Shown: piece by piece, positions 19,064 to 48,117 of the stretch
Position numbering within the stretch: position 1 is the first letter of the stretch
Layout of the letters: every line of letters begins with the position of its first letter
Origin: Candidatus Hermodarchaeota archaeon
GTDB lineage: Archaea > Asgardarchaeota > Thorarchaeia > Thorarchaeales > Thorarchaeaceae
NCBI GenBank assembly: GCA_048885865.1
Contig: JBHLLF010000003.1
Span: forward strand, 32,001-96,000
Length of the DNA stretch: 64,000 bases
Reading direction: 5' to 3'
Made by a program: the position numbers and the translations under genes
Notes under the pieces: model-generated
The model's database searches: none
Told to the model about the DNA's origin: nothing
The model's input: the letters and a program-made list of their open reading frames with translations, nothing else

Positions 19064-19765
19064 GTGAAGGTAAGTATATCGGACGAACTGGATAGAACGA
19101 ATGAAGTTCTTCAAAAGGTCTTGAGAAGGGTTGTTGACCTTAACAAAGAGTTGGAACCATTGGAGAGTGAGCTTGGAGCGATGGACTTCGCCAAGAGCGG
19201 AATCTATGTTCTTGGCGCGTCCGCTGGGGTGGTCTGTTTCCCTACTGCACTTGTTGAGGGAGACCCCATGAAGCCAATCCTTGATGGTGCAAGGGCAAGT
19301 GATGCGAAGATGCCCTCAATTGTTGAAGCGGCGGATCCTGAAGAGTCAATGAGCACCTGCAATCGTGTTATAATGATGATGAAGAGAGAAATATGGAATA
19401 AGAGAGAGGCCATCCTTAAACCCAGTTTTTTGCTTGTTATACGATGGGACCACATGTTTGAAGACTTTGAAAGAAGCAATACAGTTGCTGTTGGTAAACG
19501 CTATATCTCCGGGTCAGAGGACAGCTTGAAGAAGTTGGCAAAGAATCTAAAGAAACTTGGATTCACAATTATCGAAGACTCAGGTCAATACGGCGGAGGA
19601 CCAATGACTTATGAACTGATACAGGAATTCTCCAAATCTAGGTCACTACTAGTTGTTCAGCTCACCTTCTCCTATAGTGCTGCAACAGACAAGGCAAAGA
19701 TATTGGCAATGCTAGATATGTTGTCATCATTTCAGGTGCAATTCTATGATAGATACGGGTCCTAG
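19064..19765 (+). CDS. Coiled coil plus degenerate N-formylglutamate amidohydrolase-like fold
   Basis: VAVGKR..LKKLGFTI..YGGGPMT..VVQLTFS resembles the FGase C-terminal pattern, but the PH, DxHS and QxE residues are absent. Confidence 0.45.
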   Translation: MKVSISDELDRTNEVLQKVLRRVVDLNKELEPLESELGAMDFAKSGIYVLGASAGVVCFPTALVEGDPMKPILDGARASDAKMPSIVEAADPEESMSTCNRVIMMMKREIWNKREAILKPSFLLVIRWDHMFEDFERSNTVAVGKRYISGSEDSLKKLAKNLKKLGFTIIEDSGQYGGGPMTYELIQEFSKSRSLLVVQLTFSYSAATDKAKILAMLDMLSSFQVQFYDRYGS

Positions 19766-19775
19766 AGAAAGTGAG

Positions 19776-22700
19776 ATGCACCTGCCCTTTGTCCACGGAA
19801 TCGAAGTGGAACTTCAAGTAATCAAAAAGGATGGGTCGTGGATTCGAGGTGAAGAAATACTCACCATCTTTGATAAGCTAATCTCGAATGCCAAGGCATT
19901 GCTTGACAAGAGGATCCAAACAGCTAGAGTGGATTCTGTGAAAAAGAAGTATAGGCGTTCCAGTCAGACAGAGGAAGGAGAACGCGGCTCAAGAGTTGTA
20001 GTTGTATATGATAATCCAAAGGGAGAGCCGACTGAATTTACACTTCTTGGACATGATCCCAATGTTACGAGTCTGACTTGGATACTGGAGATTGCAACTC
20101 CTCCCTGCACCTCGATCGAAGAGCTGGCATGGTGGATACAAACACTCATTGCCATCTCCTACGAATCCCTCCCCAAGGAAGCTCGTGCAATTCTCATATC
20201 AACTGGATTGAATCCTGCTCAGGAGTATCTCAAGAATCTCTCATTTGGAGAGCATCATCATATTCTGGGACCAGATGTAGATGACAAGGTAAGAATAGCT
20301 GTTTACAATATGCTTCGAAATTTCATCCCACATCTCATTGCCCTCTCCGTAAACTCCCCATTTGAGAATAAGAAACCGACTGATGTTGTTGAAATTGATG
20401 ATGAGGGGCGGACAAGGGCACCGAGATGCAAGAGGTCAATTAGACTCGTTAAAAATACGACCCAGCTTGGACCTACAAATGAGTTTGAACTCATTCCATA
20501 TATGGTACAACCTGATAAGGAAGCCTTTGCCAGGCACGTGAATCGTAGTTATTCCAGAATGGTCGATATGTATCCATTTCATAGGCTGGGAACGGTCGAG
20601 CTTCGAGTCTTTGACACACAATTGTCAATACCTCGTAGGATTGGCATTGCGTTATTGCTTCAAGCTCTTGCGTTAAAGGCCAAGAGAATGGTGGAACGGG
20701 GAGAAAAAATCCCTAATGCAGGAGCGAAATCACTTGCAGCCAACCGTGAATCAGCTGTTTCGGCGGGGCTATGGGGTCCATTCCGACCCGGCACTAAAAC
20801 CGATAATCCCGAGTTCATGCACATATACAACCACATGATTGACGATGAAGGTGCCATTGAGGATCGAAGAAGAAACCGCTTCATGGGTGATGCTGTAATA
20901 TCAATGCTCTATCTGATTCAAAACGAGTTGGAAGAGCTAGATATCGTTGATAACCCGTTTATGCAGTCAATTCTTATTTCGGTGTTTGGGAGCGAGGTTG
21001 TACCACCGAGGACTACTAGTGCAGACTTCCAGCTTGACATCTATGCAAAATCCGAGATGAATATGGTAGTATTACTGAAGAGCCTCGCTGACATCACTAG
21101 GGAATGCTGTACTAACTGGGTATATGATCCACTTGAAGGTACACCGAAATTGCCTACATGGTTGTGCTGGTGGACTGGTCTCGAGCCAGAAATTCTGACG
21201 GACATAGAACAGCTTTTTGCGGGGCAGGAAGCTGAATTCGTCGTTTCGCTCAGGAATACTGGCGATCGTCCTCTCCTTAGCCTTGGCGTGGATTTTGCAA
21301 TCGAAGATTCAGACAGAAATGTGGTACATGAGGGTACACGTACTGTTCAAGAGATCAGCTCAGGGCAGATTCATACCGAACGAATTGCTTTCCAGACCGC
21401 TAAGGATGTTACTGCGTACAACATTATTGTTACTATCGCTCTAGGCGGGAAACAAATACACCTAACTGGAACATTGACCACATACTGGATGAAGGCTAGT
21501 ATCAGACCAGGCACAACAACACAATTCTCTGATGGGAAGACCCCCGTTCTTTATGTAGGCGACATTGAAACCAACTTCCCAGAAGCAACTGATGTAACAG
21601 TAGACATAGCTGTCATTTCTCCCCGCAAAGAGCGAGTCCTTGCTATAGTAACGGATAAGCTTCGAGTAGAGAGTCTGGACACATTGCTTTTCGACCAATC
21701 AAGCCTTCCAGACCTCATAGTCCCGACTGATGCTTCACACGGCGTTGAACGATGTACACTGCGACTTAATCTCGTAGATGCAGAAGAGGAGCTAATTACC
21801 TCAGTGATGTCAAAGCCATTCTATATTGGATTCGCTAGGAAAGGCCCTCAACTTCTGTTTGATGCAGACATTAAGGGAGTCTATTATCCTGGAGATTTAG
21901 TGGTTGGAGAGATTGAACTCGCGTCAAAGAAACATTCTATGAGCAAATCTGCTTTTCTTATAGTCGAGTTTCGCTCAGATTCAGGCGAGCACAATGAAAT
22001 TACTCGATTTGGCATTGAAGAGGTTGCTGAGGGCCCTGTCAGATTTACGTGGCGAGTGCCACAAATTGAATCAGATGAGTTGTCACACCGTGCAGGTGTA
22101 ATTGTATCCTCATTGGTGGACAAGGGGAAGGAAGTTACTTCCATAGAAACCGCTCGCTTCAGAATTGATCGCCTTGGGGTTCTGCTCAATATTGACTCAC
22201 TCCGCGCTCCAGATACGGCTCACATTGGAGGCAAGATTGCTGGATGGTTGAGGGTGCGACGCAACACAGAACTAGGTGGACCAGCTAGATTGGTAATTTC
22301 ACTGAAGTTCCCGGACGAGGGTGAACAAGTAATCCTTGAGCAGGGAGTAAAGCAAAGTAAGAATCTCTCATTGGCATTTGGTCCCGTCACAATTCCAGAG
22401 CCAAAAGGGAAGAAGAAACAGTCTAGTGTGACCCTGACTGCAAAGCTGACATATGATGGCATTGTCATTGATCAGAGATCCACTGAGATAGCCCTGTCCG
22501 ATGGTCCTGAAGGACAAATCGCAAGCATGAGCTTTGCAGGAGTCCCTGCGTTTGTTTTGCCAGATGAGGAAATCAGCCCAGTCCTTCATTTGACTAATAT
22601 CACAGGAAAGAAGCTGAAATATGATGTCAGAATAGAATTGGAGTCTATCGGAGGTACTGATCAACTGCTTAGGAGCTCTCGAACTCTGGAGTCGGGTAAG

Positions 22701-23186
22701 AGCAAGATTCTGCCCATAAAGCTGCGCGTGCCACTTAGTGCAGAGATGAGTACAGCACATCTAAAGGCCATCGTGAAGTGCGGCAGACTCACTATGGAGA
22801 GAAAGGAGCGATTTAAGGTCAAAGCTATTGAGAGTCCTGTGTTTGATGTCGATCTCTGGATTCGAAAGAAATCAGGTGAGGATGTACCCGGACTTGTCGC
22901 GAGGCTTACAAAGGTAGACCTCGGAGCCAAGATATGTGGTCTGAAAGAAGGGATGAAAGACCTAGGGATAATTCTCAGGGTTATGTCAAGAAGAGAGATA
23001 GTGAAACAGTTCAAAGCTTCGCTTTCCAATTTTGATGCAGGCGAAGAGGAAATCACCTTCCATTGGACTACACCTCCTGTTGATATGGTTACTGGATTCT
23101 ACTTGGATGCTGTTATCACTCAGGATGGAAAGACCCTTCCAGACAGAGCGGTTCGGCAGGACCAGAAGCAATTCACAGTGTACTGA
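19776..23186 (+). CDS. GCS2-type (glutamate--cysteine/carboxylate-amine) ligase fused to multiple beta-sandwich domains
   Basis: HGIEVELQ, LEIATP, FGEHHH, ALSVNSPF and TVELRVFD in the first ~300 aa, then ~660 aa of beta-strand-rich Ig/CARDB-like modules (e.g. VSLRNTG, LHLTNITG). Confidence 0.8.
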   Translation: MHLPFVHGIEVELQVIKKDGSWIRGEEILTIFDKLISNAKALLDKRIQTARVDSVKKKYRRSSQTEEGERGSRVVVVYDNPKGEPTEFTLLGHDPNVTSLTWILEIATPPCTSIEELAWWIQTLIAISYESLPKEARAILISTGLNPAQEYLKNLSFGEHHHILGPDVDDKVRIAVYNMLRNFIPHLIALSVNSPFENKKPTDVVEIDDEGRTRAPRCKRSIRLVKNTTQLGPTNEFELIPYMVQPDKEAFARHVNRSYSRMVDMYPFHRLGTVELRVFDTQLSIPRRIGIALLLQALALKAKRMVERGEKIPNAGAKSLAANRESAVSAGLWGPFRPGTKTDNPEFMHIYNHMIDDEGAIEDRRRNRFMGDAVISMLYLIQNELEELDIVDNPFMQSILISVFGSEVVPPRTTSADFQLDIYAKSEMNMVVLLKSLADITRECCTNWVYDPLEGTPKLPTWLCWWTGLEPEILTDIEQLFAGQEAEFVVSLRNTGDRPLLSLGVDFAIEDSDRNVVHEGTRTVQEISSGQIHTERIAFQTAKDVTAYNIIVTIALGGKQIHLTGTLTTYWMKASIRPGTTTQFSDGKTPVLYVGDIETNFPEATDVTVDIAVISPRKERVLAIVTDKLRVESLDTLLFDQSSLPDLIVPTDASHGVERCTLRLNLVDAEEELITSVMSKPFYIGFARKGPQLLFDADIKGVYYPGDLVVGEIELASKKHSMSKSAFLIVEFRSDSGEHNEITRFGIEEVAEGPVRFTWRVPQIESDELSHRAGVIVSSLVDKGKEVTSIETARFRIDRLGVLLNIDSLRAPDTAHIGGKIAGWLRVRRNTELGGPARLVISLKFPDEGEQVILEQGVKQSKNLSLAFGPVTIPEPKGKKKQSSVTLTAKLTYDGIVIDQRSTEIALSDGPEGQIASMSFAGVPAFVLPDEEISPVLHLTNITGKKLKYDVRIELESIGGTDQLLRSSRTLESGKSKILPIKLRVPLSAEMSTAHLKAIVKCGRLTMERKERFKVKAIESPVFDVDLWIRKKSGEDVPGLVARLTKVDLGAKICGLKEGMKDLGIILRVMSRREIVKQFKASLSNFDAGEEEITFHWTTPPVDMVTGFYLDAVITQDGKTLPDRAVRQDQKQFTVY

Positions 23187-26750: not shown

Positions 26751-27590
26751 TTGCAGTTTATTGATCCATATTGGGGAACGGTACTCCTCCTCGGATTTGT
26801 GTTCCTCTTCATACTGATGTTTATTGCTAGTGGAATCAAGGTCCTCAGAGAATGGGAACGCATTGCGATTCTTCGACTCGGAAAGTTTCAAGGCATCAAG
26901 GGTCCTGGTATAACTTGGGTCACGCCAATTCTTGACAAGATTGCGATGAAGGTCTCCCTCAGGCTATTGACCTATGCCTTCAAGACAGAGAGGTCTCTAA
27001 CGAAGGATAACGTCCCGGTAGTTGTAGACGCAGTTATGTACTTTCGAGTGATTGACCCGGAGAAAGCGATTCTCAGTGTCGAAAGGTACACTGTTGCTGT
27101 CGAACTCGCTGCTCAAACCACTCTGCGAGAAACTACTGGAAAGGTCACACTTGATGAACTTCTAGCAGAAAGAGACAAGATAGCGGAGCATTTACAGGAG
27201 CTTATCGATGAGAAAACTGAACACTGGGGTGTTAAGGTCACATCTGTGGAAATCCGTGACGTTGTAATTCCAGCAGCGCTACAAGACGCGATGAGCAGAG
27301 AGGCACAAGCTGAGAGAGAACGTCGTGCAAGAATCACTCTGGCAACTGCTGAACTTGAAGCTGCGGAGAATATGTTGAAAGCAGCTAAAAGGTACGAGGA
27401 ATCCAATGTTGGTTTTGTCCTCAGAACTTGGAATATAATGCAGGAGATATCAAAGAACGCGAATCTGATAATCATGGTGCCTACAAACATACCGGAAGTG
27501 GGCGTAACCACAGCCACAGCAGCTGCGATGTCTGCAGGTACTGGTGGGCTAAGGGTGCCCAAGAACAAGGGAATGGCAGATGAAGATTAG
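26751..27590 (+). CDS. SPFH/stomatin (band 7) protein
   Basis: LRLGK..GPG, TKDNVPVVVDAV, AQTTLR, WGVKVTSVEIRDV, AQAERERRA. Confidence 0.95.
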   Translation: MQFIDPYWGTVLLLGFVFLFILMFIASGIKVLREWERIAILRLGKFQGIKGPGITWVTPILDKIAMKVSLRLLTYAFKTERSLTKDNVPVVVDAVMYFRVIDPEKAILSVERYTVAVELAAQTTLRETTGKVTLDELLAERDKIAEHLQELIDEKTEHWGVKVTSVEIRDVVIPAALQDAMSREAQAERERRARITLATAELEAAENMLKAAKRYEESNVGFVLRTWNIMQEISKNANLIIMVPTNIPEVGVTTATAAAMSAGTGGLRVPKNKGMADED

Positions 27591-27610
27591 ATTAACACTG
27601 AGAGGTTGAC

Positions 27611-28312
27611 ATGATGGATGCATGGATTAAGGTCTTCGTCGTGCTATTGCTGATGTCACTGCTCAGTGTCCTCATAGGTTATGTCCTATTTGATCCATTT
27701 GTCGGATTGATTCTTGTGGCGATTGTGCTGACCCTGATGGTTGTGGCAGTTGAGCCAGCAAGTGGCAAGGCGATGGCTCAGGTCATAGTACCAATCGTGC
27801 TAATTCTCTTTGCCATGCAGGTCTTCTTCAGGCCAGAAACCTCATTTGATATCACACAGCTAATCGTCATAGCTGGATTGCTATTCCTGATGCTAGCTAT
27901 CTTCACAGGAGGAGGAGGATTCGTTGACGGCGGATTCATAGATGCAAAAGTGACATGCAAACTCTTTCCATTCTATGGAGTAGCGATTCTGCTATCAGTC
28001 CTCATTGATCCCACAAGGACAATTACCGTCTATCTCATGGTGGGAACGGTCATGGGATTGATGGTCCTCTATGGCATATTCCTTAGGGGCTATGACAAGT
28101 GGCCCGAATTCTCGGAGTATGACAAAATGCATGATGTTATTGCTATTTCAGACATCAATCCCACTGGCAAGGTAAAAGCAGGTGCAGCCATTTGGAGAGC
28201 CAGAACAGATGGTCCGCCCATTAGCAAGGGAGAGAGCGTATCTGTCCGTGGGATAACCGGCTTGACAATGATTGTGGGCCACGAGGTCCCTGGGGAGTCC
28301 AATCAGCGCTAG
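27611..28312 (+). CDS. NfeD-like membrane protein (C-terminal OB domain)
   Basis: TM bundle, then PTGKVKAGAAIWRART..ISKGESVSV..ITGLTMIV; adjacent to the SPFH gene. Confidence 0.82.
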   Translation: MMDAWIKVFVVLLLMSLLSVLIGYVLFDPFVGLILVAIVLTLMVVAVEPASGKAMAQVIVPIVLILFAMQVFFRPETSFDITQLIVIAGLLFLMLAIFTGGGGFVDGGFIDAKVTCKLFPFYGVAILLSVLIDPTRTITVYLMVGTVMGLMVLYGIFLRGYDKWPEFSEYDKMHDVIAISDINPTGKVKAGAAIWRARTDGPPISKGESVSVRGITGLTMIVGHEVPGESNQR

Positions 28313-29353: not shown

Positions 29354-30637
29354 TTGCTCTTGTCTGAAACAAGACGTCTGCTACTGGAGTTCGAAACGGA
29401 AGAAGTCGGAATCCGCGCTTCAAAGGATAAGAGGGTGAAGAAGGCACTAGTTAGTGCATTTTCTGATGCCTCCGACGTTGTGAGGGAGCGGGCTCTTCTA
29501 GCAGCTATTGATGCTGGCGATCCCACTATTGTAACTGACATAATCAAGGCAATGACGGATGAGGATGACGATGTTAGAATTGCAGCCGCTCAGGCTCTAG
29601 CATTCTATCACCAGCCAAGAACAATCCCTGATTTACTGAAAGGACTCCAAGACATCAATACATGGGTCAGGTCGCACTGTGCTGCAGGCCTCTCCAAGCT
29701 CCTAAATGGGCCAATCTGGGCAAGACTTGATTCAGGTGAGATTGAAGACCTTATCGCTGGCTTTCCTGACATGCAGGACTCTGTTATTCGTTCAAGACTG
29801 AGTAAGATGAATGTAGAATCCGATGCCATTGGTAGATACTTAACCTGGCGAGCAAAGGACTTCGATATAGAAATCGATGTTACAGACTTTCTCAAGGGAT
29901 TGGAAGAAACGCCTATAGTATTGCCAGGAGTGGCCGAAGCCGCAGCAGCGGCTCCTTCTGATGAAATTCCGAGAAAGACCACAGGCGTTTCTTCAGAGGT
30001 CGAAGAGATTCTTAGCGAATTACCAGATGAGCTTCGCGAAACTCTACCGGAGGAGGACCTGAGAAGACTCACTCCCGATACAGCAAGAGAATTGGTCATC
30101 TCCTTGACAACAGCGATGCCCACCGCAAAGCCAAAAGAAATGCCGAAGAAGAAAGCAGTGAAGGTCAGGAAGGTCAAAAAGGTCCGCCGAAAGAAGAAAG
30201 GGCCAAGCAGGCAGGAACTCGTAGAGATGATTCCAGATGAAGTAAGGGAATCTGTTTCAGACGATGTTCTCAAGACATTGACATATGAGGAACTTGAGGC
30301 GCTGATTGCATCAACAACTGAAGCCGCAGCTCCTGAAGAGAAGTTATCGAAGAAAGAGGCAATAATCGAAACGCTTCCCGCGGAAGTGGTCGATTCAGTC
30401 GGCGATGGTAAACTGCAGCGAATGACTGTCAAGGAGTTAGAGGAGCTTGCTGCCACAGCTAGCATGAGTGATGATGAACGTCGACTTCAGGACTTCACCG
30501 AGAAATATGGCGAAGAGAAGGCAAAAGTTCTCGCAGGAGTGCCTGATGAAATGTTGGCCGGCATCCCAGAGGAGCAAATCCATGAGATGGACTTGGATAC
30601 TCTGAAGGCACTAGTTCAGGCTCTGGAACACACTTAG
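29354..30637 (+). CDS. HEAT-repeat protein with four C-terminal ~27-aa helical repeats
   Basis: D..DVVRERA, DEDDDVRIAAAQAL, DINTWVRSHCAAGL; Lys/Arg linker; repeated hPxEh...h.hxxLxxL units. Confidence 0.8.
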   Translation: MLLSETRRLLLEFETEEVGIRASKDKRVKKALVSAFSDASDVVRERALLAAIDAGDPTIVTDIIKAMTDEDDDVRIAAAQALAFYHQPRTIPDLLKGLQDINTWVRSHCAAGLSKLLNGPIWARLDSGEIEDLIAGFPDMQDSVIRSRLSKMNVESDAIGRYLTWRAKDFDIEIDVTDFLKGLEETPIVLPGVAEAAAAAPSDEIPRKTTGVSSEVEEILSELPDELRETLPEEDLRRLTPDTARELVISLTTAMPTAKPKEMPKKKAVKVRKVKKVRRKKKGPSRQELVEMIPDEVRESVSDDVLKTLTYEELEALIASTTEAAAPEEKLSKKEAIIETLPAEVVDSVGDGKLQRMTVKELEELAATASMSDDERRLQDFTEKYGEEKAKVLAGVPDEMLAGIPEEQIHEMDLDTLKALVQALEHT

Positions 30638-30644
30638 TTCATAA

Positions 30645-31925
30645 CTACTCCGATCCGCGTATGACGATTGCAAATTCACTTGCCAGCTTGCCATACCACT
30701 CTAGAAGATCTCTCATATTGTCAACATGGCGATATGTTCCGTTGCCATACTGGGCCATCGCAAGCATCAATTCCTCGTCAATCTCGCTGCGTTCGCCAAG
30801 TCCGATAGTGTAAATCACAAGACTGGTTGTATCTGCGAATCGATCCTTGAGAACCTTGAGTGGAGCGGGGCCTGATGTTGTCATTCCATCCGTCATCATG
30901 ATGACCATTGTCGGCTTGGATGGGTCTCCAAATGCTCTGATGATATCCGCAGCTCGTACGAGAGCTGTCCCCATGTCTGTTAGAGTGCCTCCTTCCTCAA
31001 TTTTGTCCACCACGTGAGTGCTTATGATTTGAAGACCGAGAGCCTTCTCTCTTCCCGTACACTCAACATAGGGTTGGACCTCTCCCGTTTCTGAACTCAA
31101 AAAGGTCATCTCAGTGACCTCTTTCTCGAAAGTCACAACCCCAACTTTCTCGCCATAGCCTCTCCCTACCTTTTCCGCAAGGTACAGGAGGACTGCCATC
31201 GCTGCAGCCTCACCTCTACTTACATTCGTTCCTTCCTTGAAACGATCTAGAAATGCTTGAACCTCTGGGTTGTCCCCGGCGAGATCCTTGAGGCCTTCAC
31301 GTGCATGAGCTATGTCCTGAACAGGCACATCAATTGTTTTCATCGAACCGCTAGTATCAATGCATAGAACTGCATTGAAAGGAGTAGCAATTCCTATAGT
31401 CTTAAACTGATATCCAGTTCGTTCCTTAAGAGCTTCAAAAGCGAGTTTAGCGAATCTCTTGCCAGAGAGAGATGGACGAGTTGTCATTATCTCGACTTTC
31501 ACGTTCAACTCTGGCCAAATGAATGACATTCCCGGGTATACTAGACGTCCACCAATGAGCTTCTCTAAAGATGCGACTTGTTCAGCAGCTCGCGTGACAA
31601 GATCTTCTGTACTGGCATCCTCAGTGAGGGGCTTGAGCCCGAATTCCACATATTCCAGGGCAATCATGTCCTCATCATACAGAGACACCTCAATGCCCGC
31701 GTCGCCTTCCATTAAGAGCGAGGCTTCAAGGACCAGAGTATCAATTCTGATTCTATCAGGTGGAACACCATCATTGATTCGTATCTGTGCAGCACCCCAG
31801 AATGATGAGGCTGGGTCCTCAAACACAACGATTGATCCCAGCTCAGCATTCAGCTTCTTAGCAGTCTTTGGGTTGAGAACGGCGTATCCTCGAAGGTCTC
31901 CGCCATCATCAATCTCCAGTTTCAC
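30645..31925 (-). CDS. Cdc48-N-like (double-psi barrel + alpha/beta) domain fused to vWA with intact MIDAS
   Basis: RGYAVLNPKTAKKLNAELGSIV..WGAAQI...PPDRIRID resembles the Cdc48/NSF N domain; vWA motifs LCIDTSGSM, GTLTDMG, MTDG, YTIGLG. Confidence 0.75.
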   Translation of the reverse strand: MKLEIDDGGDLRGYAVLNPKTAKKLNAELGSIVVFEDPASSFWGAAQIRINDGVPPDRIRIDTLVLEASLLMEGDAGIEVSLYDEDMIALEYVEFGLKPLTEDASTEDLVTRAAEQVASLEKLIGGRLVYPGMSFIWPELNVKVEIMTTRPSLSGKRFAKLAFEALKERTGYQFKTIGIATPFNAVLCIDTSGSMKTIDVPVQDIAHAREGLKDLAGDNPEVQAFLDRFKEGTNVSRGEAAAMAVLLYLAEKVGRGYGEKVGVVTFEKEVTEMTFLSSETGEVQPYVECTGREKALGLQIISTHVVDKIEEGGTLTDMGTALVRAADIIRAFGDPSKPTMVIMMTDGMTTSGPAPLKVLKDRFADTTSLVIYTIGLGERSEIDEELMLAMAQYGNGTYRHVDNMRDLLEWYGKLASEFAIVIRGSE

Positions 31926-32010
31926 CGTCTTGGTGATGTCATTCTCCTCCTATTGTAAGTTGTTTAACTCTTCTTCAGATTCATTATAAAGAATTGTGCA
32001 AGATGGTCCA

Positions 32011-33519
32011 TCACGTTAGTAACTTCAAAACCTCTCTAGTTAGGTCTAATGCCGTCCTACTCTTGATGGGATTTGAATTAATCGCTTTGGTGAACGTGGC
32101 ATTAATCCTCTGAGTCCCAAACTCAAGGCTATCAAGAGAATCTTCGCCCTTTGTGCCGAGAACGGTACAGCTTGTTATAGTACCAGGGCCTCTTTTGACC
32201 CAGAGATGCAATTCTGTTTTACCGCCACGGACACCAAGAGAAATAACATACGAGTCGAAGTAAATGCCATTATGACCACCTGAACTGACAGTTTGCACTT
32301 TGGGCCAAGTGTGCTTTGGTGGTATCATGTAATCCACGGAAGTGATATCCCAGCCCTCGCCAGCAATCAGCTTCATCAAGGTATCTTCAAGGGTGACTAT
32401 TGCATCGCTTTCGCAACCAATGCAAACGACTGCTTGTGGAGGACGCTCAATAGCTCTATCTGTCCCAAATGGACGATTAACCAAGGATAACGCATTTCCA
32501 CCAAGAATCCTCTGGGCATCTTCTAATCCTCCTGGAAAATCGCGAGACAGAAGATGAAGTATGAGTTCAACAGCTTGTACCGAGAGAAAGGTGTAGTCAG
32601 TCCCAAAAAGAAGATTATCCGACCAACTCCCCGTAGACATGTTTAACCGATCCTTCGACATTCTGAAGAGAACAGGTACATCCTTGTCATGGAGTGTAGA
32701 AGTTTCTCCATAGATAGCAGGATCCCGCAATATTTCATAGAGCTTAGTACTTCCGGGACTCATGGCACAATGTGCGAGGATGATACTCAGTCCCCGCATA
32801 GCATTCGTATATCTATCATCTTCCCTCATTGAGACCACTAGGTTTCTTATTCTCTCGGCTGTCCGGATGTTCCTTGTGTCCAGAATCACAGGGATGCGTA
32901 GCTCTCCTGCTCTAGCAACTACAGCCTTCATATATTCGGACTCGATATCTTCCAAGAATAGCTGAGCTAGAGGATGGAGTTTCAAGCCCCTAAGTCCGAG
33001 CTCGCCGATAGCTCTGTCAAGCTCTCGAATTGGTAAATCAGGTGTCCCACTCAGGGCGTCCTTTGGATCTACCCGAGCGAAACCAATAAGCCTAGATGAA
33101 TGAGGAGCACGTGATGTCCAAGCTGCAATCCTGTCGTTTGATACATAAAACGATGGCTCATCTGGGGATCGACTCTTGGAGTAGTCATCCGTGTAAGGAA
33201 ATGCAATTGTTCGGTCGACCAGCCAGCCATGATTCATCCGTGCCCACTTCTCTTTGGCTGCAAAAATCCTCTCCGGCAACTCAGGTATTTCAATCCGTAC
33301 AGGCTCATACAATAATGCGTCATTATTCATCATTTTCTCAGCCATTCGCTGCATCTCGATCCATAGTAGCGCATAGAACTCATATGCCCCTCCGGGAGTA
33401 TTCCGATGGCTCTTCTCTTTGCCCATATGGTGATGAGCATCCACAATGTATAGTTTGAACTCATCTCCCTTTCTGATGCCTTTCTCTGGAATGTCTTGAA
33501 GTGCTCGAACAACCAACAT
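32011..33519 (-). CDS. Metal-dependent amidohydrolase (amidohydro_2 TIM barrel) with C-terminal extra domain
   Basis: IVDAHHH, GLKLHP, ILAHC, LFGTDY, ILGGNAL. Confidence 0.85.
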   Translation of the reverse strand: MLVVRALQDIPEKGIRKGDEFKLYIVDAHHHMGKEKSHRNTPGGAYEFYALLWIEMQRMAEKMMNNDALLYEPVRIEIPELPERIFAAKEKWARMNHGWLVDRTIAFPYTDDYSKSRSPDEPSFYVSNDRIAAWTSRAPHSSRLIGFARVDPKDALSGTPDLPIRELDRAIGELGLRGLKLHPLAQLFLEDIESEYMKAVVARAGELRIPVILDTRNIRTAERIRNLVVSMREDDRYTNAMRGLSIILAHCAMSPGSTKLYEILRDPAIYGETSTLHDKDVPVLFRMSKDRLNMSTGSWSDNLLFGTDYTFLSVQAVELILHLLSRDFPGGLEDAQRILGGNALSLVNRPFGTDRAIERPPQAVVCIGCESDAIVTLEDTLMKLIAGEGWDITSVDYMIPPKHTWPKVQTVSSGGHNGIYFDSYVISLGVRGGKTELHLWVKRGPGTITSCTVLGTKGEDSLDSLEFGTQRINATFTKAINSNPIKSRTALDLTREVLKLLT

Positions 33520-33660
33520 CTAAATGCGGCCTCGGTTGGTGGAGGCTACTGACTTGTGAGAGATAAAGTATTCCTTCATAGACAGAAGCACGAAGTGCAT
33601 CTGCGTCAGGCATATATCCAAACGTGAGAAACTGGAGAATAGAGTCCGCGGGAGCATGAA

Positions 33661-36324
33661 TTGATGCTTGTTGTTGAAGACACTGCAGAGGGCGAGGTCA
33701 AGCGCTTCCTAGTGGTTGATGCGCTGATACAACTAGGAGAGATTCAGGCCGGTTCTCAAAGCAGAATCTTTGACCCCAATAGGGTGCTCTCATTCTATGA
33801 TATGGTTGAGAATCAGCTACTCGATTACTCAAGCAAATATCCTGAGGCCTTCAAATATGTCCCCCGAAGAGCATATGCCTACCTCAAGAGACCTCCTATT
33901 CTTAGTGAGCTATATCACGATGTTTCTTCTTCAGAACTAGGATGGTTTGCCGATCTTTTCGCAGTGAGACCACTGCTAGGAGTGGGAGATACCAAGCTGC
34001 CCCTCGAACAGCGCAGGAAAAACATCACACGCACTGAGAACTGGAGTGTCACTCCACCCTTTAGCTCAAGATTATATCGACTTCAAGACATGAGATTTGG
34101 CAGCCGAGGTCGAAATGGCTGGGGTGCGGTAATGACCGCTCTGGACCTAAAAGAGTCGCTGAGAAATGACAATCGCACAGACCTCCTGAGCTATTTCAAA
34201 TCCCAGTTGCCGTTGCTAATTGAGATGGAAAAGAAGGAGGACCTTGATTTGCTAATGGAATGGCTGGTCTTCCTAAAGGATGCTGGGCTTGAGGCGCCGC
34301 CCACGCTTTTCCTACTTCGAGATCATAAGGCGTGGAACTCTGAGATCATGCGGCTGCTTCAGATTCCAAATTCCAGATTACTGCTTGCTGGTGCAACAAT
34401 AACCTCATTATCGACAATAATCAAAGACCTTCGCAACTCAACAGGCGATTCTGATTGGTCCAAGAAGTTTGTATTTGCGAGTGCATATCCTGAAACTCAG
34501 AAAGGTGATAGCATTACAGAGATCATCAGCTTTCTTCTGAGTAATAACTTGGGAGCTACTCCTGAAGAGCTGCAGCGGATTCTTGCAGGGAACCTTCTCA
34601 GTATGCTACCGCCAAGGCCTCCATATTACGAGTATGTGGACAACACATCCAGTGTGATTGCAGAAGGATTGATCGGAAAGGCATCACTCAGTGAAATGTC
34701 AAGAATCTTTAGAATCCTCGCGGCCAGAAAGATCCAGATTATCGAGTCTTTTGATTACATGATTGCAAACGAAGGCGGCGAGATCCATCTCAACGATTCG
34801 ATTTTAACTGTAAGAAATCCTATATCAAAGACGGCCAACACTGTTGTATTGCTTAACGAGCCTGATGACTCCCTCACGGTTTCTGGTTGGAGAAATTCTT
34901 TCACAAGAAAATCTCCAGATAGAATGATAGACCCTCTCAAGTCTCTAGTTCAATCAACAGCCAGAACAGATGGCCCCATTCTACAGTCGCCATCAGATAT
35001 AAACCGGTTCAATCGTGCCCTCCTAGACTGCCTGAAAGTGAAGAACATGCAGGAGATTCTTTCCGCGCTGCATTTCAAGCTAAATATGTCAGGTACCAAG
35101 AATGGAACACTGTTGATGTCAGAAGACGATATGCGTGCCATGGGTGTAGCAAATGGAGATTTGGTGTTGGGCATGGATGCCATGGAAGGTCAGTGGTGGG
35201 CAGGCTGTGTCGAACTAGATGCAGGATGTCCTCAACGAACCATTTGTGTTTCAAAAGACGACGCACTTATTCTTGGACTTTCGGAAGATTCGGTTGTGGA
35301 CATAGTCAAGAGCGAAGGCAAGATTAAGAACCTAGAGAAAGCTGTCTTTGCGTTGGACTCGACTAAGGGATTCTCAAGAGCGGAACTGCTGTCATATGCA
35401 TACCTGCATGCAGAGAGACTGCAAAAGACATTGAACGGTCAAATTCTGGGCAAGGGAACTTCAATCTGGATCAATGGTCGTGATGCTGGGGCTTGCATGA
35501 CACTCACGCACTCTGTTCCACCTCTGGATCCTGGAGAATTAGCTAGACTAGCTGGCGACTCATTGGAATTTAGACCTTCACAGATGTTCAGACCATTCAA
35601 CATGATTCTAGCCATATCGACAGATAGTGGAATGGGTGTTCAAGACATTGAACTCAAGACAGTGCAGTCTTTGAAGCGAAGACTGAGCACATTGTCCTCG
35701 ATAGTGCCGGAGATTGAAGACCTCCTATCGAATCTCGGAACCTCAATAACTAGAATGGATATGGCGACACTTGCAGCTTTGCTGCTAATTCAAAGTCTGT
35801 CCGGCAATAGAACTGATGGGTCGTTGGGTATCGTCACAGTTGGAGAAACCCCTACGAAATTCTCAATTCAAAAGGGAGAGATCATTCAGACGAGAATACA
35901 GTTCTCCAATGACTTTGCATCTGAGGATGTTCTGGTGTCAATACTCTATTCGTTATTGGACAGTTCCCGTGATTTCGGAGGTTCGGCCAGATTATCAGGC
36001 GCATTCAGAGCTATAGCCGAGTTCCTAGAAGACTTCGGTTCTGAAATGCCAACACTAATTGTATTGATGGCCAATCTAGGCGGTGAAACCTTCGAAGATG
36101 TGAAACCATTCCTACAAGCAATAGCATCAAGAAACAGATACCAAATAGAGATTCTTAGCCTGGGAGAAGATGCTCAGAGCCTTAGTCCTGATTTCAGAGA
36201 TATCAATGTAAGAGTGCATCACATGACCAGTTTTGCGGCTGATGTTTTTGAGGGCTACTTGGCCAATGTTATTGAGAAACTAGTGATGGGAAATCTTGAC
36301 CATTCTACTTCCGATGCCTTTTGA
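33661..36324 (+). CDS. Fusion of degenerate amidohydrolase + Cdc48-N-like + degenerate vWA
   Basis: VVDALIQ, FASAYP, QRILAGNLL and SFDYMI parallel ORF 32011-33519. NGTLLMSEDDMRAMGVANGDLV..WWAGCV and PFNMILAISTDSGM..QDI parallel ORF 30645-31925. Confidence 0.7.
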   Translation: MMLVVEDTAEGEVKRFLVVDALIQLGEIQAGSQSRIFDPNRVLSFYDMVENQLLDYSSKYPEAFKYVPRRAYAYLKRPPILSELYHDVSSSELGWFADLFAVRPLLGVGDTKLPLEQRRKNITRTENWSVTPPFSSRLYRLQDMRFGSRGRNGWGAVMTALDLKESLRNDNRTDLLSYFKSQLPLLIEMEKKEDLDLLMEWLVFLKDAGLEAPPTLFLLRDHKAWNSEIMRLLQIPNSRLLLAGATITSLSTIIKDLRNSTGDSDWSKKFVFASAYPETQKGDSITEIISFLLSNNLGATPEELQRILAGNLLSMLPPRPPYYEYVDNTSSVIAEGLIGKASLSEMSRIFRILAARKIQIIESFDYMIANEGGEIHLNDSILTVRNPISKTANTVVLLNEPDDSLTVSGWRNSFTRKSPDRMIDPLKSLVQSTARTDGPILQSPSDINRFNRALLDCLKVKNMQEILSALHFKLNMSGTKNGTLLMSEDDMRAMGVANGDLVLGMDAMEGQWWAGCVELDAGCPQRTICVSKDDALILGLSEDSVVDIVKSEGKIKNLEKAVFALDSTKGFSRAELLSYAYLHAERLQKTLNGQILGKGTSIWINGRDAGACMTLTHSVPPLDPGELARLAGDSLEFRPSQMFRPFNMILAISTDSGMGVQDIELKTVQSLKRRLSTLSSIVPEIEDLLSNLGTSITRMDMATLAALLLIQSLSGNRTDGSLGIVTVGETPTKFSIQKGEIIQTRIQFSNDFASEDVLVSILYSLLDSSRDFGGSARLSGAFRAIAEFLEDFGSEMPTLIVLMANLGGETFEDVKPFLQAIASRNRYQIEILSLGEDAQSLSPDFRDINVRVHHMTSFAADVFEGYLANVIEKLVMGNLDHSTSDAF

Positions 36325-36595
36325 GAGACTCAATTGTAGCTATTCGGGTTTCCAGCAAATCAACCTCAACTTCAATGTCATCTATCGTATTGCCAATTTC
36401 CTCGATTGCATTGAAATGGTCACGAATACTCAATCCTTCCAGCCGAGTAGATTCTGCATCTATAAAGGATAGAATCTCTTTGACACCATTTAAACGCGCA
36501 TGAATTTCCTCAATTATGGCCAGTGTTTCTTCTATCCGGCCTATCGCAGGAGGGATTCTCGGACTCTCTGGCACAAGATTCACATCCGACTTCAT
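36305..36595 (-). CDS. Small coiled-coil protein
   Basis: Heptad pattern; translationally coupled (ATGA overlap) to the upstream gene. Confidence 0.6.
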   Translation of the reverse strand: MKSDVNLVPESPRIPPAIGRIEETLAIIEEIHARLNGVKEILSFIDAESTRLEGLSIRDHFNAIEEIGNTIDDIEVEVDLLETRIATIESLKRHRK

Positions 36596-37833
36596 TCGAT
36601 GAGCTGAGAGGCACGTTCCTCTATTATTCCCAGTCTGGCAGTTAGCTCTTCAAGCCTATCCAGCAGATGTCCAAGCTTGGTGCGCAGCATCCCTACAGCT
36701 GCACCTTCATCTCCTCCAAAATCACCTGTCATCATGGATGAGTTCAGCTGGTCGGCAAGTAATTGGGATTGGTTCTCAATTATCTCCAGCCTCTCAATGA
36801 TTTCCTCAACTGGGAATTTTTCCATGCGCGTTCTTAGGTCATCAACCAATGTCGTAAGAGATTGAGCTGCTCGTTTCTCTTCATCACTAATCATTGGTTT
36901 GACTGGTTCTGCCAAGATGAAGGACTTCTTCACCCCCTCTAGTAAGCCTTCAGGTTTGCTTACCACCACCTCTCTAGTTCTTGTTGGAGGGTGAACTCTG
37001 TCACCCCTCTCGAACCAAGCAGGCACCAGAAATTTGCGTGCAATATCTTCAAGATCTGTATCCAGTAGTATCGCGAAGGTAGCTAATTCTCGTGGATTAT
37101 CCCAGATAGCTAGCTCCACACTGTCCTCCTTTCTAAGAATCGCCGCGGCCACTCCCAGATTCAGATCCTCAAAGATCGGCAAATCAATAAGCCAACGGCT
37201 GAAGAGAAGCGCAAAGGCTGGAATCTGTCTCAACTTCCCGCATCGCAAGGCAATTGAGTATTCCTCCTCCGGTAGTTCAATTGCTTGCTTTATCCAAATT
37301 GATGTGTTGAATTTTCTTCCGGGGATGGTCAGACTAAGAACTTCAGCAGCCTCCCATTCTATGGCGTCTATTCTCAATTGTTCAATATAGTCCAAATGTG
37401 GTTCCTCAAATTCCGGAGAGAGTTTCTCTCCCAGAATATACTTCAAGACAAGGCGAATGATTTCGTGTGGGGAATAGTCACGAAGCCAGATAGTTGTGGC
37501 CAGCTTGACTCGCCCTCGTGCGTGTTCATCATCGGATAACACAACGACCAGCTTCGATGAATCAAGCCCTGGCTCTCCAAGAATGAAGATGCCGGTTCTT
37601 CCAGGAGCATCCATTGCGCGATCAGCCATCAAATGTACAGCATCATGAGTCGGTTCAATGTAATTCTCTTGATTGAATTTCGTAGTTGAAGACTCTTGGA
37701 GTCCTTTTGCTAGCAGCCCTTCCTCAACCCATCCCGATTTGAGTCCCTTTTCTGGAAGTTGCGATATTAGATATCCAAGAACTTCGCTGCTACTATACAT
37801 TGCTTGAAGTCTGGTTATTGCTTCGTCGTTCAC
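36592..37833 (-). CDS. Hypothetical protein with C-terminal coiled coil
   Basis: 413-aa ORF coupled by a GTGA overlap; globular N-terminal part and heptad-rich last ~100 aa. Confidence 0.7.
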   Translation of the reverse strand: MNDEAITRLQAMYSSSEVLGYLISQLPEKGLKSGWVEEGLLAKGLQESSTTKFNQENYIEPTHDAVHLMADRAMDAPGRTGIFILGEPGLDSSKLVVVLSDDEHARGRVKLATTIWLRDYSPHEIIRLVLKYILGEKLSPEFEEPHLDYIEQLRIDAIEWEAAEVLSLTIPGRKFNTSIWIKQAIELPEEEYSIALRCGKLRQIPAFALLFSRWLIDLPIFEDLNLGVAAAILRKEDSVELAIWDNPRELATFAILLDTDLEDIARKFLVPAWFERGDRVHPPTRTREVVVSKPEGLLEGVKKSFILAEPVKPMISDEEKRAAQSLTTLVDDLRTRMEKFPVEEIIERLEIIENQSQLLADQLNSSMMTGDFGGDEGAAVGMLRTKLGHLLDRLEELTARLGIIEERASQLIE

Positions 37834-38957
37834 CTGCCAACAACCTCGTTATCAATCCTATCGAATATTCTCTCAATCCTTGGTTTAACTTCTTTGAACT
37901 TGTCTATATGAATCAGACTCCCTTTACCCGCAACCGCAATAGCTTGCATTAAATCCATGTCTGATTCGGTTCCCAGTGCCACGCATGTAACAAAGATGCC
38001 TTGGCTCGCCCCCATTTTTCTTGCTGTAATAACCGGATTGCGACCTGAAGTGAATGCACCACCAGATATGAGTATCACAAGGGTGGGGAGCCCATTCCGC
38101 GATTTCAGTTGGTGTGCTATTTCAATAGACAAATCCATGGCGCTCCCAGGATTTGATGGTTCATCATTGCGGTCATTATTCTGTTCTGAAAGCCAATCAT
38201 GGATTGACTGATATGATTCTGAACTCAACTGAAGCATGCTACCTTCGGTAGTTGCCAATTCTTCGGACGACTCGCCAAACGCAACAGCTGAAACCAAAGC
38301 ATCATCGCACTCCTTGGCAGAGGATAGTATGGTCTCAATTGCACACAGACTAGCTTTGAATCGTGTGATTCCTGCAGTGCCATCTTCCATCTCTATATCT
38401 TCAATACCAGATGATGCTCCCACGTCTACCAAGCAACATAAATTGAAACAAGAAGGAAATTCAGCTTGAGCGGTAAGATTGACCTTCATTAGCTGATTCC
38501 ATATAATCCTAGATGCCTGCAGTTGCTCTGTAACGGGCTTTGAGTTATCCACGATTAATCCTATGCCAAGATCAGCAATATCAATCCGCTGTCCCATTCG
38601 TACAATACGACCATCAAGATGGTCCTTGAGATCATCGATTCGTCTGGATAGAGCATCCACAGCTTTTGTATTCTCTACTCCTTCCAGAGAATCAACAAGC
38701 AGAGATAGCTCATTGGAGTCAGGAATTGCTTCAGGAACAGCTGTCAAGGTAACTTCGCTGTGCTCTTCACATCCCAATTCATTGAATATTCGGGAATCGA
38801 TCACAATGGAGCCAGAAGCTATTCTCTCTGAAGTGCGAATGTCAGTGAAAACAATCACTCCTTCATAGCTCAATTGCGCCGTTGAAATCGTGGTTACAGA
38901 GGGATGCACAAATGAGATTCCTCTCTGGCTTCGCCCTTTGATAGCATCAAGCTCCAA
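37830..38957 (-). CDS. Cdc48-N-like + vWA paralog with degenerate MIDAS
   Basis: Likely TTG start at 38957 (after GGTG) gives MELDAIKGRSQRGISFVHP, matching the paralog N-terminus. FNLCCLVDVGAS, ISGGAFTSGRNP, CVALG, MQAIAVAGKG. Confidence 0.7.
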   Translation of the reverse strand: MELDAIKGRSQRGISFVHPSVTTISTAQLSYEGVIVFTDIRTSERIASGSIVIDSRIFNELGCEEHSEVTLTAVPEAIPDSNELSLLVDSLEGVENTKAVDALSRRIDDLKDHLDGRIVRMGQRIDIADLGIGLIVDNSKPVTEQLQASRIIWNQLMKVNLTAQAEFPSCFNLCCLVDVGASSGIEDIEMEDGTAGITRFKASLCAIETILSSAKECDDALVSAVAFGESSEELATTEGSMLQLSSESYQSIHDWLSEQNNDRNDEPSNPGSAMDLSIEIAHQLKSRNGLPTLVILISGGAFTSGRNPVITARKMGASQGIFVTCVALGTESDMDLMQAIAVAGKGSLIHIDKFKEVKPRIERIFDRIDNEVVGR

Positions 38958-38973
38958 GACCGGCCACCCACAC

Positions 38974-40116
38974 CTAATACAGACGGGTATTGTATATCGC
39001 AGTTGCAAGCGATTTGGAACCATACATGACCTCAACACGAATACTTGCCTTACCTTTTTCATCCGTCATTGGCGTGAGCTGCGATTCAATATGTCGTTCA
39101 GAGTTGGGGCCAATTTCATGCTTTTCATTTGTGACCTCAGACACTCCTTCAGGCGTGATTAATGTGACTATAAGACGGATTCCTATTACAGCTCGACTTG
39201 GATTCTTCACTCTCAAATCATACATGAATGGTCTTCCGGCGATCAGAGCGTCAGGGACTTCACCAAGCTCAACACTCATTCCCATCTTTGATGCTGCAAG
39301 CGGACGACCCTTAGGCCATCTTGAAATTTTGCTGAGCTCAAGCAACCGTGAGAGTGATGTCTTTACATCTCTAATCTCCAGTCCAAGCTGAACTGCAGAC
39401 TCCCCGATGTCAAATGTCCCGTCATTTGCCTCATAGTAGGCAAGAACTCTTCGATCAGATTCAATGAGGTCACTTACTCCTTCAAGGATTTGAAGGATAG
39501 CTTCCGGTAATTCGTGTGCCTCCTGAAGAGAATAGTATCGCCCTCCATCTACCGAATCTGCTATGCTTTTGAATGACTCTCTTACAAGAGGATTGCAGCC
39601 ACAAACGAAAATGAATACAGTTTCCCCGTATCGGCTCTTGAGGGATTGCACTTCCCTCTGAGAGTCATGGCCTTTGGGGCACCCGTCTGGAAAGTAATCA
39701 TCGCTGAGGTTGTTGTACTTTCTGCCATGGGGTGGTGCATCACCGACAAGTAGCAACGCCTTGTAGGCATGTTCATCCCATGAGAGCTTTGTCCTAGCAT
39801 CAAACAATCCGTCAGCAACAGCTTCAGGTGTATCTCCACCCTGAGAAGGATTAAGATTCGATATCTCCCTATGTACGTTCTTGATACGATCCGAAAAATC
39901 GAAAATCCGTGTCACGTAGGAGTGATCCTGAGGCGGATGATCACGGTATGAAACTATTGCGAATCGTATACTCAAATCCCTGGTTCGTGTAGTAATTTTG
40001 TCGACAATGTCAAACAAGCTGTCCTTCACTGCACGAATGTCATCTTTCATTGAACCGGTCGTATCGACCACAAAGGCAACGTCAAGTTTGGCTCGCTGCA
40101 GCCCAATCCACTCCAT
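38974..40116 (-). CDS. vWA (DTTGS/GDAPPH subtype) + HTH + C-terminal beta-sandwich protein
   Basis: LDVAFVVDTTGSM, SYRDHPPQD, GGDTPEAV, VGDAPPHG; then SAVQLGLEIRDVKTSLSRL (HTH-like) and an Ig-like end. Confidence 0.85.
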   Translation of the reverse strand: MEWIGLQRAKLDVAFVVDTTGSMKDDIRAVKDSLFDIVDKITTRTRDLSIRFAIVSYRDHPPQDHSYVTRIFDFSDRIKNVHREISNLNPSQGGDTPEAVADGLFDARTKLSWDEHAYKALLLVGDAPPHGRKYNNLSDDYFPDGCPKGHDSQREVQSLKSRYGETVFIFVCGCNPLVRESFKSIADSVDGGRYYSLQEAHELPEAILQILEGVSDLIESDRRVLAYYEANDGTFDIGESAVQLGLEIRDVKTSLSRLLELSKISRWPKGRPLAASKMGMSVELGEVPDALIAGRPFMYDLRVKNPSRAVIGIRLIVTLITPEGVSEVTNEKHEIGPNSERHIESQLTPMTDEKGKASIRVEVMYGSKSLATAIYNTRLY

Positions 40117-40597: not shown

Positions 40598-41152
40598 CTA
40601 TAGACTCTGCTGAAGGTTCCGTAAAAGCAGCTCATTCTCATCAGGTTCTACTACGGTGGGATCTACAACTATGCCAGATTCATGGGCTTCAATAACCACA
40701 TCAATTCCAGATTGACTAACCTTTTTTATCCCTGAATGGGAGAGAGCTCTCACTCTCAATTGGGTCGTGTCGAACTCGGTCCTATCTGCGGATTCGACCG
40801 CCTTGACGTCTCTGCGCAGTTTTGTCTTTGCTATTCGAAGCTGCTCCTTCAACTGGACCAGTTGGAGCTGAAGGTCAATTCGCTCACGATCTGCCGCCTC
40901 GAATTTTGCTAGAACCTCATCATGCTGAGCCTTTGAAACCAGATTTCGGGTTTGATCAATCCAAGTGATGGTAGTGCCATCAAACCGACGTTTCGTTGAT
41001 ACTTGTCCTAGAGCTTTTAGAACAGCTATTACATCATAGATTCGCCGTTTGGGAGTATTGAGTTGCTCAGCTAATACATCGCTCCTAATCCCTTCCTCCC
41101 CATGTTCCTTTAGTATTCTAAGAGCAGTTTTTGCCAAATCTACTAGCTTCAA
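40598..41152 (-). CDS. E2F/DP-like winged-helix transcription factor with coiled coil
   Basis: LAEQLNTPKRRIYDVIAVLKALGQV...ITW matches the E2F/DP RRxYD recognition helix. A heptad repeat and a beta-rich tail follow. TTG start after GGGGTG. Confidence 0.8.
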   Translation of the reverse strand: MKLVDLAKTALRILKEHGEEGIRSDVLAEQLNTPKRRIYDVIAVLKALGQVSTKRRFDGTTITWIDQTRNLVSKAQHDEVLAKFEAADRERIDLQLQLVQLKEQLRIAKTKLRRDVKAVESADRTEFDTTQLRVRALSHSGIKKVSQSGIDVVIEAHESGIVVDPTVVEPDENELLLRNLQQSL

Positions 41153-47499: not shown

Positions 47500-48117
47500 A
47501 TGATCCAAGCGTTGTTTATAATCGCTGAGAGCGGGCTTTGCCTGATCAGTAAGACATACGGCGCAGCTGAAGATGGAGGAATAGATGACAACTTAGTGGG
47601 AGGTTTCCTTCAGGCTGTTGGATCATTTGGAGAAGAGCTCCGTGGTGGGGGAGTCCTTGAAGATATGAGTTTCAAGGGGTTCAAGATTGTCCTGTCAAGG
47701 CATCCGGGATTTATGGTGGCAGGAATGATTGACCAGATTGATGATAGGATATCAGCAAAAGCGGTCCTGTCAGATGTTGGAAATGAGTTTCTTGAAGGCT
47801 ATAAGGATATAATAGCTGAATTTGATGGAAGCTTGGACCATTTTGAGGGATTTTATCCGAGAATCGATGAGTTAACAAAGCTAGGGAAAGCTGCCGAAAA
47901 GCGCGTCATCGTGCCAGTTCTTAAGGGTAAAGTTTCTCCGATGCTTGTTAGACTTGGTCAGATGACCCAGATTGTATTTGATGTTGCCAAGAAATGTCAA
48001 GGCAAATTAACCACCAATGACATTGCATATGAGCTCAAGTTGTCGCTCAAAGAGGTTGTGAAGTCATTGCATACTCTAGAAGATATGGATATGCTGGAGT
48101 GGAAGGAAATAGGCTAG
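47500..48117 (+). CDS. Longin-domain + C-terminal winged helix protein (NPRL2-like architecture)
   Basis: LFII.ESGLCL..,DDNLVGGFLQAVGSF (longin), then VPVL..KCQGKLTTNDIAYELKLSLKEVVKSL. Confidence 0.72.
   Translation: MIQALFIIAESGLCLISKTYGAAEDGGIDDNLVGGFLQAVGSFGEELRGGGVLEDMSFKGFKIVLSRHPGFMVAGMIDQIDDRISAKAVLSDVGNEFLEGYKDIIAEFDGSLDHFEGFYPRIDELTKLGKAAEKRVIVPVLKGKVSPMLVRLGQMTQIVFDVAKKCQGKLTTNDIAYELKLSLKEVVKSLHTLEDMDMLEWKEIG

Follow-up and report, generated by a model that had tools for sequence, protein, structure and literature searches.

Three paralogous genes, here called A, B and C, lie in a 64,000-nucleotide stretch of a Candidatus Hermodarchaeota archaeon genome of the Thorarchaeia (assembly GCA_048885865.1, contig JBHLLF010000003.1, positions 32,001 to 96,000; the window is this whole stretch, and coordinates are counted from its first letter). 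Their products combine a Cdc48-type N-domain (Cdc48-N) with a von Willebrand factor A (vWA) domain, a feature that is real and undescribed. Our results suggest that A (30645..31925, minus strand, 426 amino acids (aa)) is probably the docking subunit of an Asgard ligase-hydrolase module, whose other members are a GCS2/YbdK-type carboxylate-amine ligase (19746..23186, plus strand, 1146 aa) and an Amidohydrolase_2-type metal hydrolase (32011..33519, minus strand, 502 aa) encoded on the strand of A, immediately upstream of it. Homologs likewise place the window within the Thorarchaeia. We assign this role to the A family because it travels with the ligase, has once been fused to it, is predicted to bind it and accompanies the hydrolase. 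In A and the ligase there is a specific candidate enzyme complex with which a possible modification chemistry of Asgard archaea can be put to the test. We found no paper on the A family or on the module, with subscription journals sparsely covered.

A probable ligase-hydrolase module

The same 301 Asgard genomes, belonging to 30 families, were surveyed for A, the ligase domain and the amidohydrolase. A was matched in 181 genomes (a few weakly), and the ligase domain and the amidohydrolase in 173 each. Strong matches to all three fall in the same 10 families (f1, f2, f6, f7, f9, f19, f22, f24, f27 and f28), and with these queries none of the three had a strong match in the other 20. The A family covers Loki-type, Jordarchaeia and Heimdallarchaeia lineages and about 60% of the sampled Asgard genomes; a structure search of the Atlas listed no full-length match outside the Asgard cluster. 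Within the family, paralogs have been duplicated repeatedly, and forms with a dead metal ion-dependent adhesion site (MIDAS) have arisen repeatedly. Three Thorarchaeia genomes that are 96-99% complete (G027, G037 and G098) are missing A, ligase and hydrolase together, and profile searches found no full-length A in them. In a sample of the negative genomes, profile searches gave generic vWA or Cdc48-type matches only, except for a B-like gene in genome G005. Because related genomes are not independent, we use these counts as a pattern and not as a statistic.

In the synteny survey that the original prediction had proposed, A proved to be conserved, and the neighbours that recur beside it across lineages are the ligase and the amidohydrolase. 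The three genes are adjacent or nearly so in Jordarchaeia, Freyarchaeia, Asgardarchaeum, Heimdallarchaeia and family f22; in f22 they are co-directional, and the Heimdallarchaeia clusters contain A paralogs in pairs. Synteny within Thorarchaeia is weak evidence, since it extends just as well to unrelated genes (stomatin, DUF92, CAAX protease). Both partners are also found fused to A homologs. The 962-aa protein P0192 joins an A homolog to a ligase domain (34% identity over 471 aa, E 1e-65) and has a second member in its cluster, and B is a hydrolase-A fusion of the Thorarchaeia.

The ligase domain occupies residues ~10-480 of its protein and is followed by Ig-like repeats. It has the fold and catalytic residues of the GCS2/YbdK carboxylate-amine ligases, and the catalytic ExE, E, HxH and E-x-R positions are invariant or nearly so in 41 aligned sequences. 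The HxH, His and terminal Asp motifs of the hydrolase are also conserved, and it keeps its metal ligands. Enzymes of the GCS2/YbdK fold join a carboxylate to an amine via an acyl-phosphate, forming an amide, and the amidohydrolase fold can cleave such bonds. Analogous writer-plus-eraser gene logic is seen in the Pup ligase/depupylase pair PafA/Dop and in prokaryotic amidoligase-plus-peptidase gene modules. The present module differs from these in that the putative eraser is a TIM-barrel amidohydrolase and in its extra Cdc48N-vWA subunit.

A complex of A with the ligase domain was predicted with an ipSAE interface score of 0.71, and the best of three controls scored 0.00. Among 80 solved complexes 58 attain this mark, as do 2 of 110 mismatched pairs; these counts hold only roughly here because our own alignments were used. 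At least 74% of contacts agreed between runs, with a partner predicted local distance difference test score (pLDDT) of at least 80. On A, the predicted interface comprises barrel residues 40-43 and 70-75, the second subdomain, insert residues 203-215 and the GRGxG motif at 254-258; none of the residues named for it belongs to the MIDAS. The models predict, in other words, that A binds the ligase domain through Cdc48-N and the insert/GRGxG surface of its vWA domain. No solved complex of this kind was found.

These observations are consistent with an Asgard-wide three-gene module of an ATP-dependent carboxylate-amine ligase, a metal amidohydrolase and a Cdc48N-vWA protein, in which A would be a non-catalytic docking or regulatory subunit. 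The ligase would activate a carboxylate, probably glutamyl, with ATP and couple it to an amine, and the hydrolase would reverse or turn over the amide so made. A would bring in the substrate, or its MIDAS metal may engage an acidic residue of the substrate or partner. A docking subunit and the Ig-like tail of the ligase lead us to favour, by a modest margin, a protein or peptide substrate over a small metabolite. It is somewhat unlikely that the module is instead metabolic, with a small gamma-glutamyl amide or a precursor of a redox buffer as the product that the ligase makes and the hydrolase recycles, and with A acting allosterically or structurally. YbdK, the closest solved relative of the ligase in the profile search (E 2e-13), speaks for such a role, as do the YbdK-like label of the ligase cluster in the Atlas and the several Loki-type and Heimdall ligases of ~490-600 aa that lack the long Ig tail. 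The Ig-like tails, however, fit macromolecular substrates better, as does the recurrent duplication seen among A paralogs, and we know of no requirement for a vWA or Cdc48-N subunit in YbdK/GshA enzymes.

Several points weigh against A as docking subunit of the ligase. In most of the Loki-type (f9) genomes sampled A lies apart from the ligase, and in the window the two are 7.5 kb apart. Conservation at the predicted interface does not exceed that of the remainder of either protein (0.43 versus 0.40, and 0.48 versus 0.52). YbdK is a small-molecule gamma-glutamyl ligase, and PafA/Dop were not among the profile matches of the ligase; no Pup-like tag was identified either, although no systematic tag search was made. 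Kinship among the genomes makes the events behind the joint distribution look more numerous than they were, and G005 retains its B-like gene alongside no match to A, ligase or hydrolase. In most Loki-type genomes sampled the ligase adjoins the hydrolase, and A follows gelsolin-like and roadblock genes.

Some loci show further arrangements of these genes. The Loki-type A homologs (L040-L047, L152) are 580-810 aa long and have two extra double-psi barrels, with a proline-rich linker in L045 at least, and a gelsolin-like gene is found near the module in some Jordarchaeia loci too. The A-ligase fusion gene (locus L134, 10001-12889) follows genes for QueC, QueF, TGT, Mom, a DNA methyltransferase, TIR and SLATT proteins, surroundings that look like a DNA-modification or defence island. 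In a Promethearchaeota locus (L136, 4258-17562), genes for a BrxL-type ATPase and the hydrolase share one strand with a tandem pair of A homologs, a divergent ligase and an AAA gene. In L135 (1-12817) a ligase domain lies inside a protein of more than 2100 aa, whose gene is upstream of one for an A homolog and of a convergent hydrolase gene.

Paralogs A, B and C

The original prediction had described A, the C-terminal half of B (33661..36324, plus strand, 887 aa) and C (37830..38957, minus strand, 375 aa, TTG start) as paralogs with Cdc48-N followed directly by vWA, and our analysis agrees. A profile of 81 A homologs, from which the B and C proteins were left out, was searched genome-wide and retrieved exactly these three proteins (A at E 8e-139, B at 4e-38, C at 2e-31) before a generic vWA protein at 5e-5. 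With a genome-wide profile of the N-domain alone, B and C were matched at 1e-21 and 1e-15. The paralogy of A, B and C is far beyond chance. For A the domain order is also borne out by the predicted model, and B and C are assigned the Cdc48N-vWA fold by homology. No AAA family was matched in any of the three, as the prediction of proteins free of an AAA+ domain had held. Its motifs after the FN pair were also read correctly (DTSGS in A, STDSG in B, DVGAS in C), and the MIDAS is kept in A only, the five positions being D-S-S-T-D in A, S-D-G-A-N in B and D-G-S-S-G in C. Among the 81 A homologs D190 and D346 are invariant, and S192, S194 and T316 are conserved in at least 90%. The vWA domain of A also carries a helical insert of ~35 aa (~199-237) and the conserved GRGxG motif. 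Median identity of A over the loci sampled, mostly from Thorarchaeia, is 80%.

B and C, found only in Thorarchaeia, are both degenerate and have neither MIDAS nor GRGxG. The barrel of C is shortened or diverged and aligns to the profile only from position 44, and its vWA domain has no helical insert; the alpha/beta subdomain is present. A feature of B overlooked in the original prediction is that its N-terminal half (~1-460), ahead of the degenerate Cdc48N-vWA half (~470-870), is a homolog of the 32011-33519 amidohydrolase family. B has lost the amidohydrolase metal ligands together with MIDAS and GRGxG. Because its N-terminal half is an amidohydrolase homolog that lacks the metal ligands, we regard B, whose gene is oriented divergently from the amidohydrolase gene, as an inactive, fused duplicate of the two genes that it faces. 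B and C may be Thorarchaeia-specific dead duplicates, that is, regulatory pseudo-subunits that probably modulate the active pair. B is present in nearly all long Thorarchaeia loci, while the distribution of C inside Thorarchaeia is patchy; its length of 375 aa recurs among close relatives. The B-like gene of G005 (Thorarchaeia, 98% complete) is at 99399-100082 of contig C33. In an Asgardarchaeum locus (L124, 17785-20304, plus strand), three genes beyond the ligase, there is an 840-aa protein with a degenerate A-like C-terminal half, whose N-terminal half gave no match to the hydrolase profile.

Fold of A and its likeness to DEPDC5/Iml1

The predicted model of A has a pLDDT of 91, rising to 95 for the N-domain modelled alone. 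Residues 1-180 form a double-psi barrel plus an alpha/beta subdomain, the fold expected in the original prediction, and the vWA domain covers 181-420. The N-domain is closest to that of p97/Cdc48 (Z 15-16.5, root-mean-square deviation (rmsd) ~2.6), a link also detectable for the A family by profile (E ~1e-5), followed by NSF-N (Z 14.2), PEX1-N (13.9), the N-terminal domain of DEPDC5 (11.8) and Ufd1 (11.1). The p97/Cdc48/VAT/NSF/PEX1 N-domains and Ufd1 have in common the barrel and alpha/beta subdomain (Z 14-16.5 for the p97-type N-domains), but in A these are joined to a vWA domain and not to AAA+ rings, and they are predicted to dock the ligase. The vWA domain best matches a bacterial vWA domain (Z 22.1), with ITIH1 and TFIIH p44 at ~21. 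It has a vWA core with a DxSxSM-x3-D start in common with TFIIH p44/Ssl1, BatA/BatB, archaeal ArnB/VWA2, Rpn10 and Sec23/24 (Z 17.7-21). Unlike these intracellular vWA domains, that of the A family is preceded by Cdc48-N, and its ~35-aa helical insert and GRGxG are specific to the family.

These likenesses bear on whether A could be an adaptor like Ufd1 or Rpn10, handing substrates that the ligase may have tagged to Cdc48 or the proteasome; the original prediction had also left room for a role as Cdc48 adaptor. The N-domain nearest to p97/Cdc48-N, the match to Ufd1 and a vWA domain close to the p44 and Rpn10 types are what such an adaptor might show. The N-domain of p97, however, is a receptor for adaptors and not itself an adaptor; the predicted complex uses the Cdc48-N surface for binding the ligase, and the neighbourhood clusters show no recurrent AAA gene. 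We consider an adaptor of this kind distinctly unlikely.

The original prediction also saw in the paralogs the domain order of DEPDC5/Iml1 (Sea1), the GATOR1/SEACIT subunit in which an N-terminal domain (NTD) of Cdc48/NSF type is likewise followed by a vWA domain (SABA) with no ATPase (PDB 9v0j, 9xzy, 9o5a, 7t3a, 8ae6, 8adl; domain definitions in PMC8534245). In whole-chain Foldseek searches with A, nine DEPDC5/Iml1 chains rank first (E 2e-13 to 6e-11), ahead of p97 (5e-10), although at TM scores of 0.34-0.43, rmsd of ~10 Å and 11-15% identity. Among the matches listed, DEPDC5/Iml1 are the only identifiable chains with both domains in the order of A, and we attribute their top rank to this, the two domains adding up in one alignment. 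Taken singly, A 1-177 aligns end-to-end with DEPDC5 NTD 5-167 (Z 11.8, rmsd 5.0, 155 residues), lower than with p97. The top VIA matches of the vWA domain are generic vWA, ITIH and p44 domains (Z 21-22), although fast divergence of SABA could mask descent. No DEPDC5 chain was identifiable in the top 50 of either full-length VIA list for A. In our reading of the models, neither domain of A is specifically DEPDC5-like. Fold, domain order, conservation and the top Foldseek rank are in keeping with the earlier claim; the closer match of each single domain to p97-N or to generic and p44 vWA domains is not.

Sequence searches point the same way. The Pfam family IML1 (PF12257) had no match in the archaeon's own genome at E 10 and is not among the 25 Pfam families listed for the 81 A-family members. 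PDB profile searches with the full, N-domain and junction alignments gave no DEPDC5 chain among the matches listed. A search of longer proteins for a DEPDC5 link returned generic vWA matches only, which is weak evidence. In GATOR1, SABA binds NPRL2 and is followed by the SHEN, DEP and CTD domains (PMC8534245). These three are absent here: A and C stop after the vWA domain, and the extra half of B is amidohydrolase-derived. A differs further from DEPDC5/Iml1 in its intact MIDAS and in having as partners the ligase and hydrolase instead of NPRL2/3. By the features tested, the A family does not belong with DEPDC5/Iml1, and the likeness is architectural; it may reflect ancestry but not function.

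Two structural matches were set aside. Chain E of PDB 9o5d (KICSTOR-GATOR1-SAMTOR, 836 modelled residues) aligns with A 87-425 over 262 residues (Z 16.3, rmsd 5.6), but it was not counted as DEPDC5 because the library's DEPDC5 representative is 9o5a_B, so that chain E is probably another subunit; by elimination it may be the N-terminus of SZT2. An Actinomycetota vWA cluster found in the Atlas feature search (0.93, 152 shared features) was not confirmed by structure search.

Ancestry can be considered separately from function. The NTD-SABA half of DEPDC5/Iml1 could descend from the Asgard A family after loss of the MIDAS and recruitment to NPRL2/3, which would be compatible with the ligase-hydrolase module; we regard this as a reasonable possibility, with the balance leaning against it. 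Besides the nine top Foldseek matches and the end-to-end alignment of the two N-domains, it draws on the Heimdallarchaeia members of the A family, on the recurrent origin of MIDAS-dead paralogs and on the restriction of the full-length Atlas matches listed to the Asgard cluster. The weak full-length superposition and low identity count against it, as does the nearness of each domain to other families; since both domains are common, an independent fusion is plausible. A survey of GATOR1 parts in Asgard archaea, the only paper we found that joins Asgard and DEPDC5, reported NPRL2-like proteins and no DEPDC5 homolog (10.1101/2020.10.19.343400), and the main text of two structure-based Asgard surveys contains no mention of DEPDC5, GATOR or vWA (PMC12962969, PMC13734099). 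DEPDC5 is the one GATOR1 subunit for which we found no reported Asgard relative, and the A family is the first candidate that we could identify for the origin of its front half. The combined proposal of an undescribed reversible Asgard protein modification, with the ligase as writer, the amidohydrolase as eraser and A as docking subunit, and of A as also the archaeal source of the DEPDC5/Iml1 NTD-SABA, is unlikely as a whole.

The proto-GATOR1 proposal and the remaining genes of the locus

The original prediction went further and proposed a proto-GATOR1 scaffold made up of A, B and C that acts, with the longin-like plus winged-helix protein at 47500..48117 (plus strand), on small GTPases in nutrient signalling. 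An architecture match is by itself an insufficient ground for that label, and a function of this kind is not supported: SHEN, DEP and CTD are absent, no sequence-profile link was found, and the conserved partners are a carboxylate-amine ligase and an amidohydrolase. What speaks for it, besides the DEPDC5-like architecture seen by Foldseek, are the NPRL2-like proteins reported in Thor genomes (10.1101/2020.10.19.343400), the roadblock and gelsolin-like genes that adjoin A in Loki-type genomes, a Ras-like gene two genes from A in f27 and a longin-like gene that adjoins A in one f28 genome. These signalling neighbours, however, vary by lineage and belong to abundant classes (34 Ras-family and 14 roadblock matches in this genome), and the f27 GTPase is Ras-like and not Rag. 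Gtr1_RagA had one weak match in this genome, on another contig. The NPR2 profile had no match in the 301 genomes, where a positive control was also lacking. B and C, moreover, were found only in Thorarchaeia, and half of B is an amidohydrolase. We find a proto-GATOR1 role very improbable.

The longin protein can be separated from the ligase-hydrolase module by its distribution and genomic position, and we do not count it as a member. In the 301-genome survey it was found in f12, f13, f16 and module-free Thorarchaeia genera and, at the same threshold, not in f22, f24, f27 or f28. In the single-contig genome G038 its best match is more than 1 Mb from the module, and it had no clear match in the non-Thorarchaeia loci examined. 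It belongs to a single-copy family of Thorarchaeia, Jordarchaeia and several other Asgard families that is independent of the module.

C lies in a run of genes on the minus strand. Directly upstream of it and heading the run is a fourth vWA gene (VWA_4, 38974..40116), overlooked in the original prediction, which has an intact DxTxS motif and no Cdc48-N. It is well conserved in Thorarchaeia (median 69% identity), and in locus L132 a homolog adjoins an A homolog. Downstream of C are a 413-aa protein with no Pfam family (36592..37833), which tends to co-occur with C, and, last in the run, a 96-aa coiled-coil-like protein (36305..36595). A winged-helix protein with a coiled-coil-like C-terminal part (40598-41152, minus strand), above the Pfam cut-off for E2F_TDP (E 5e-9), is conserved in position in Thorarchaeia. 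On the plus strand, a stomatin (SPFH) and NfeD gene pair (26751-28312) lies between the ligase and A, and a HEAT-repeat protein of short helical repeats (29354-30637) converges on A in almost every Thorarchaeia locus.

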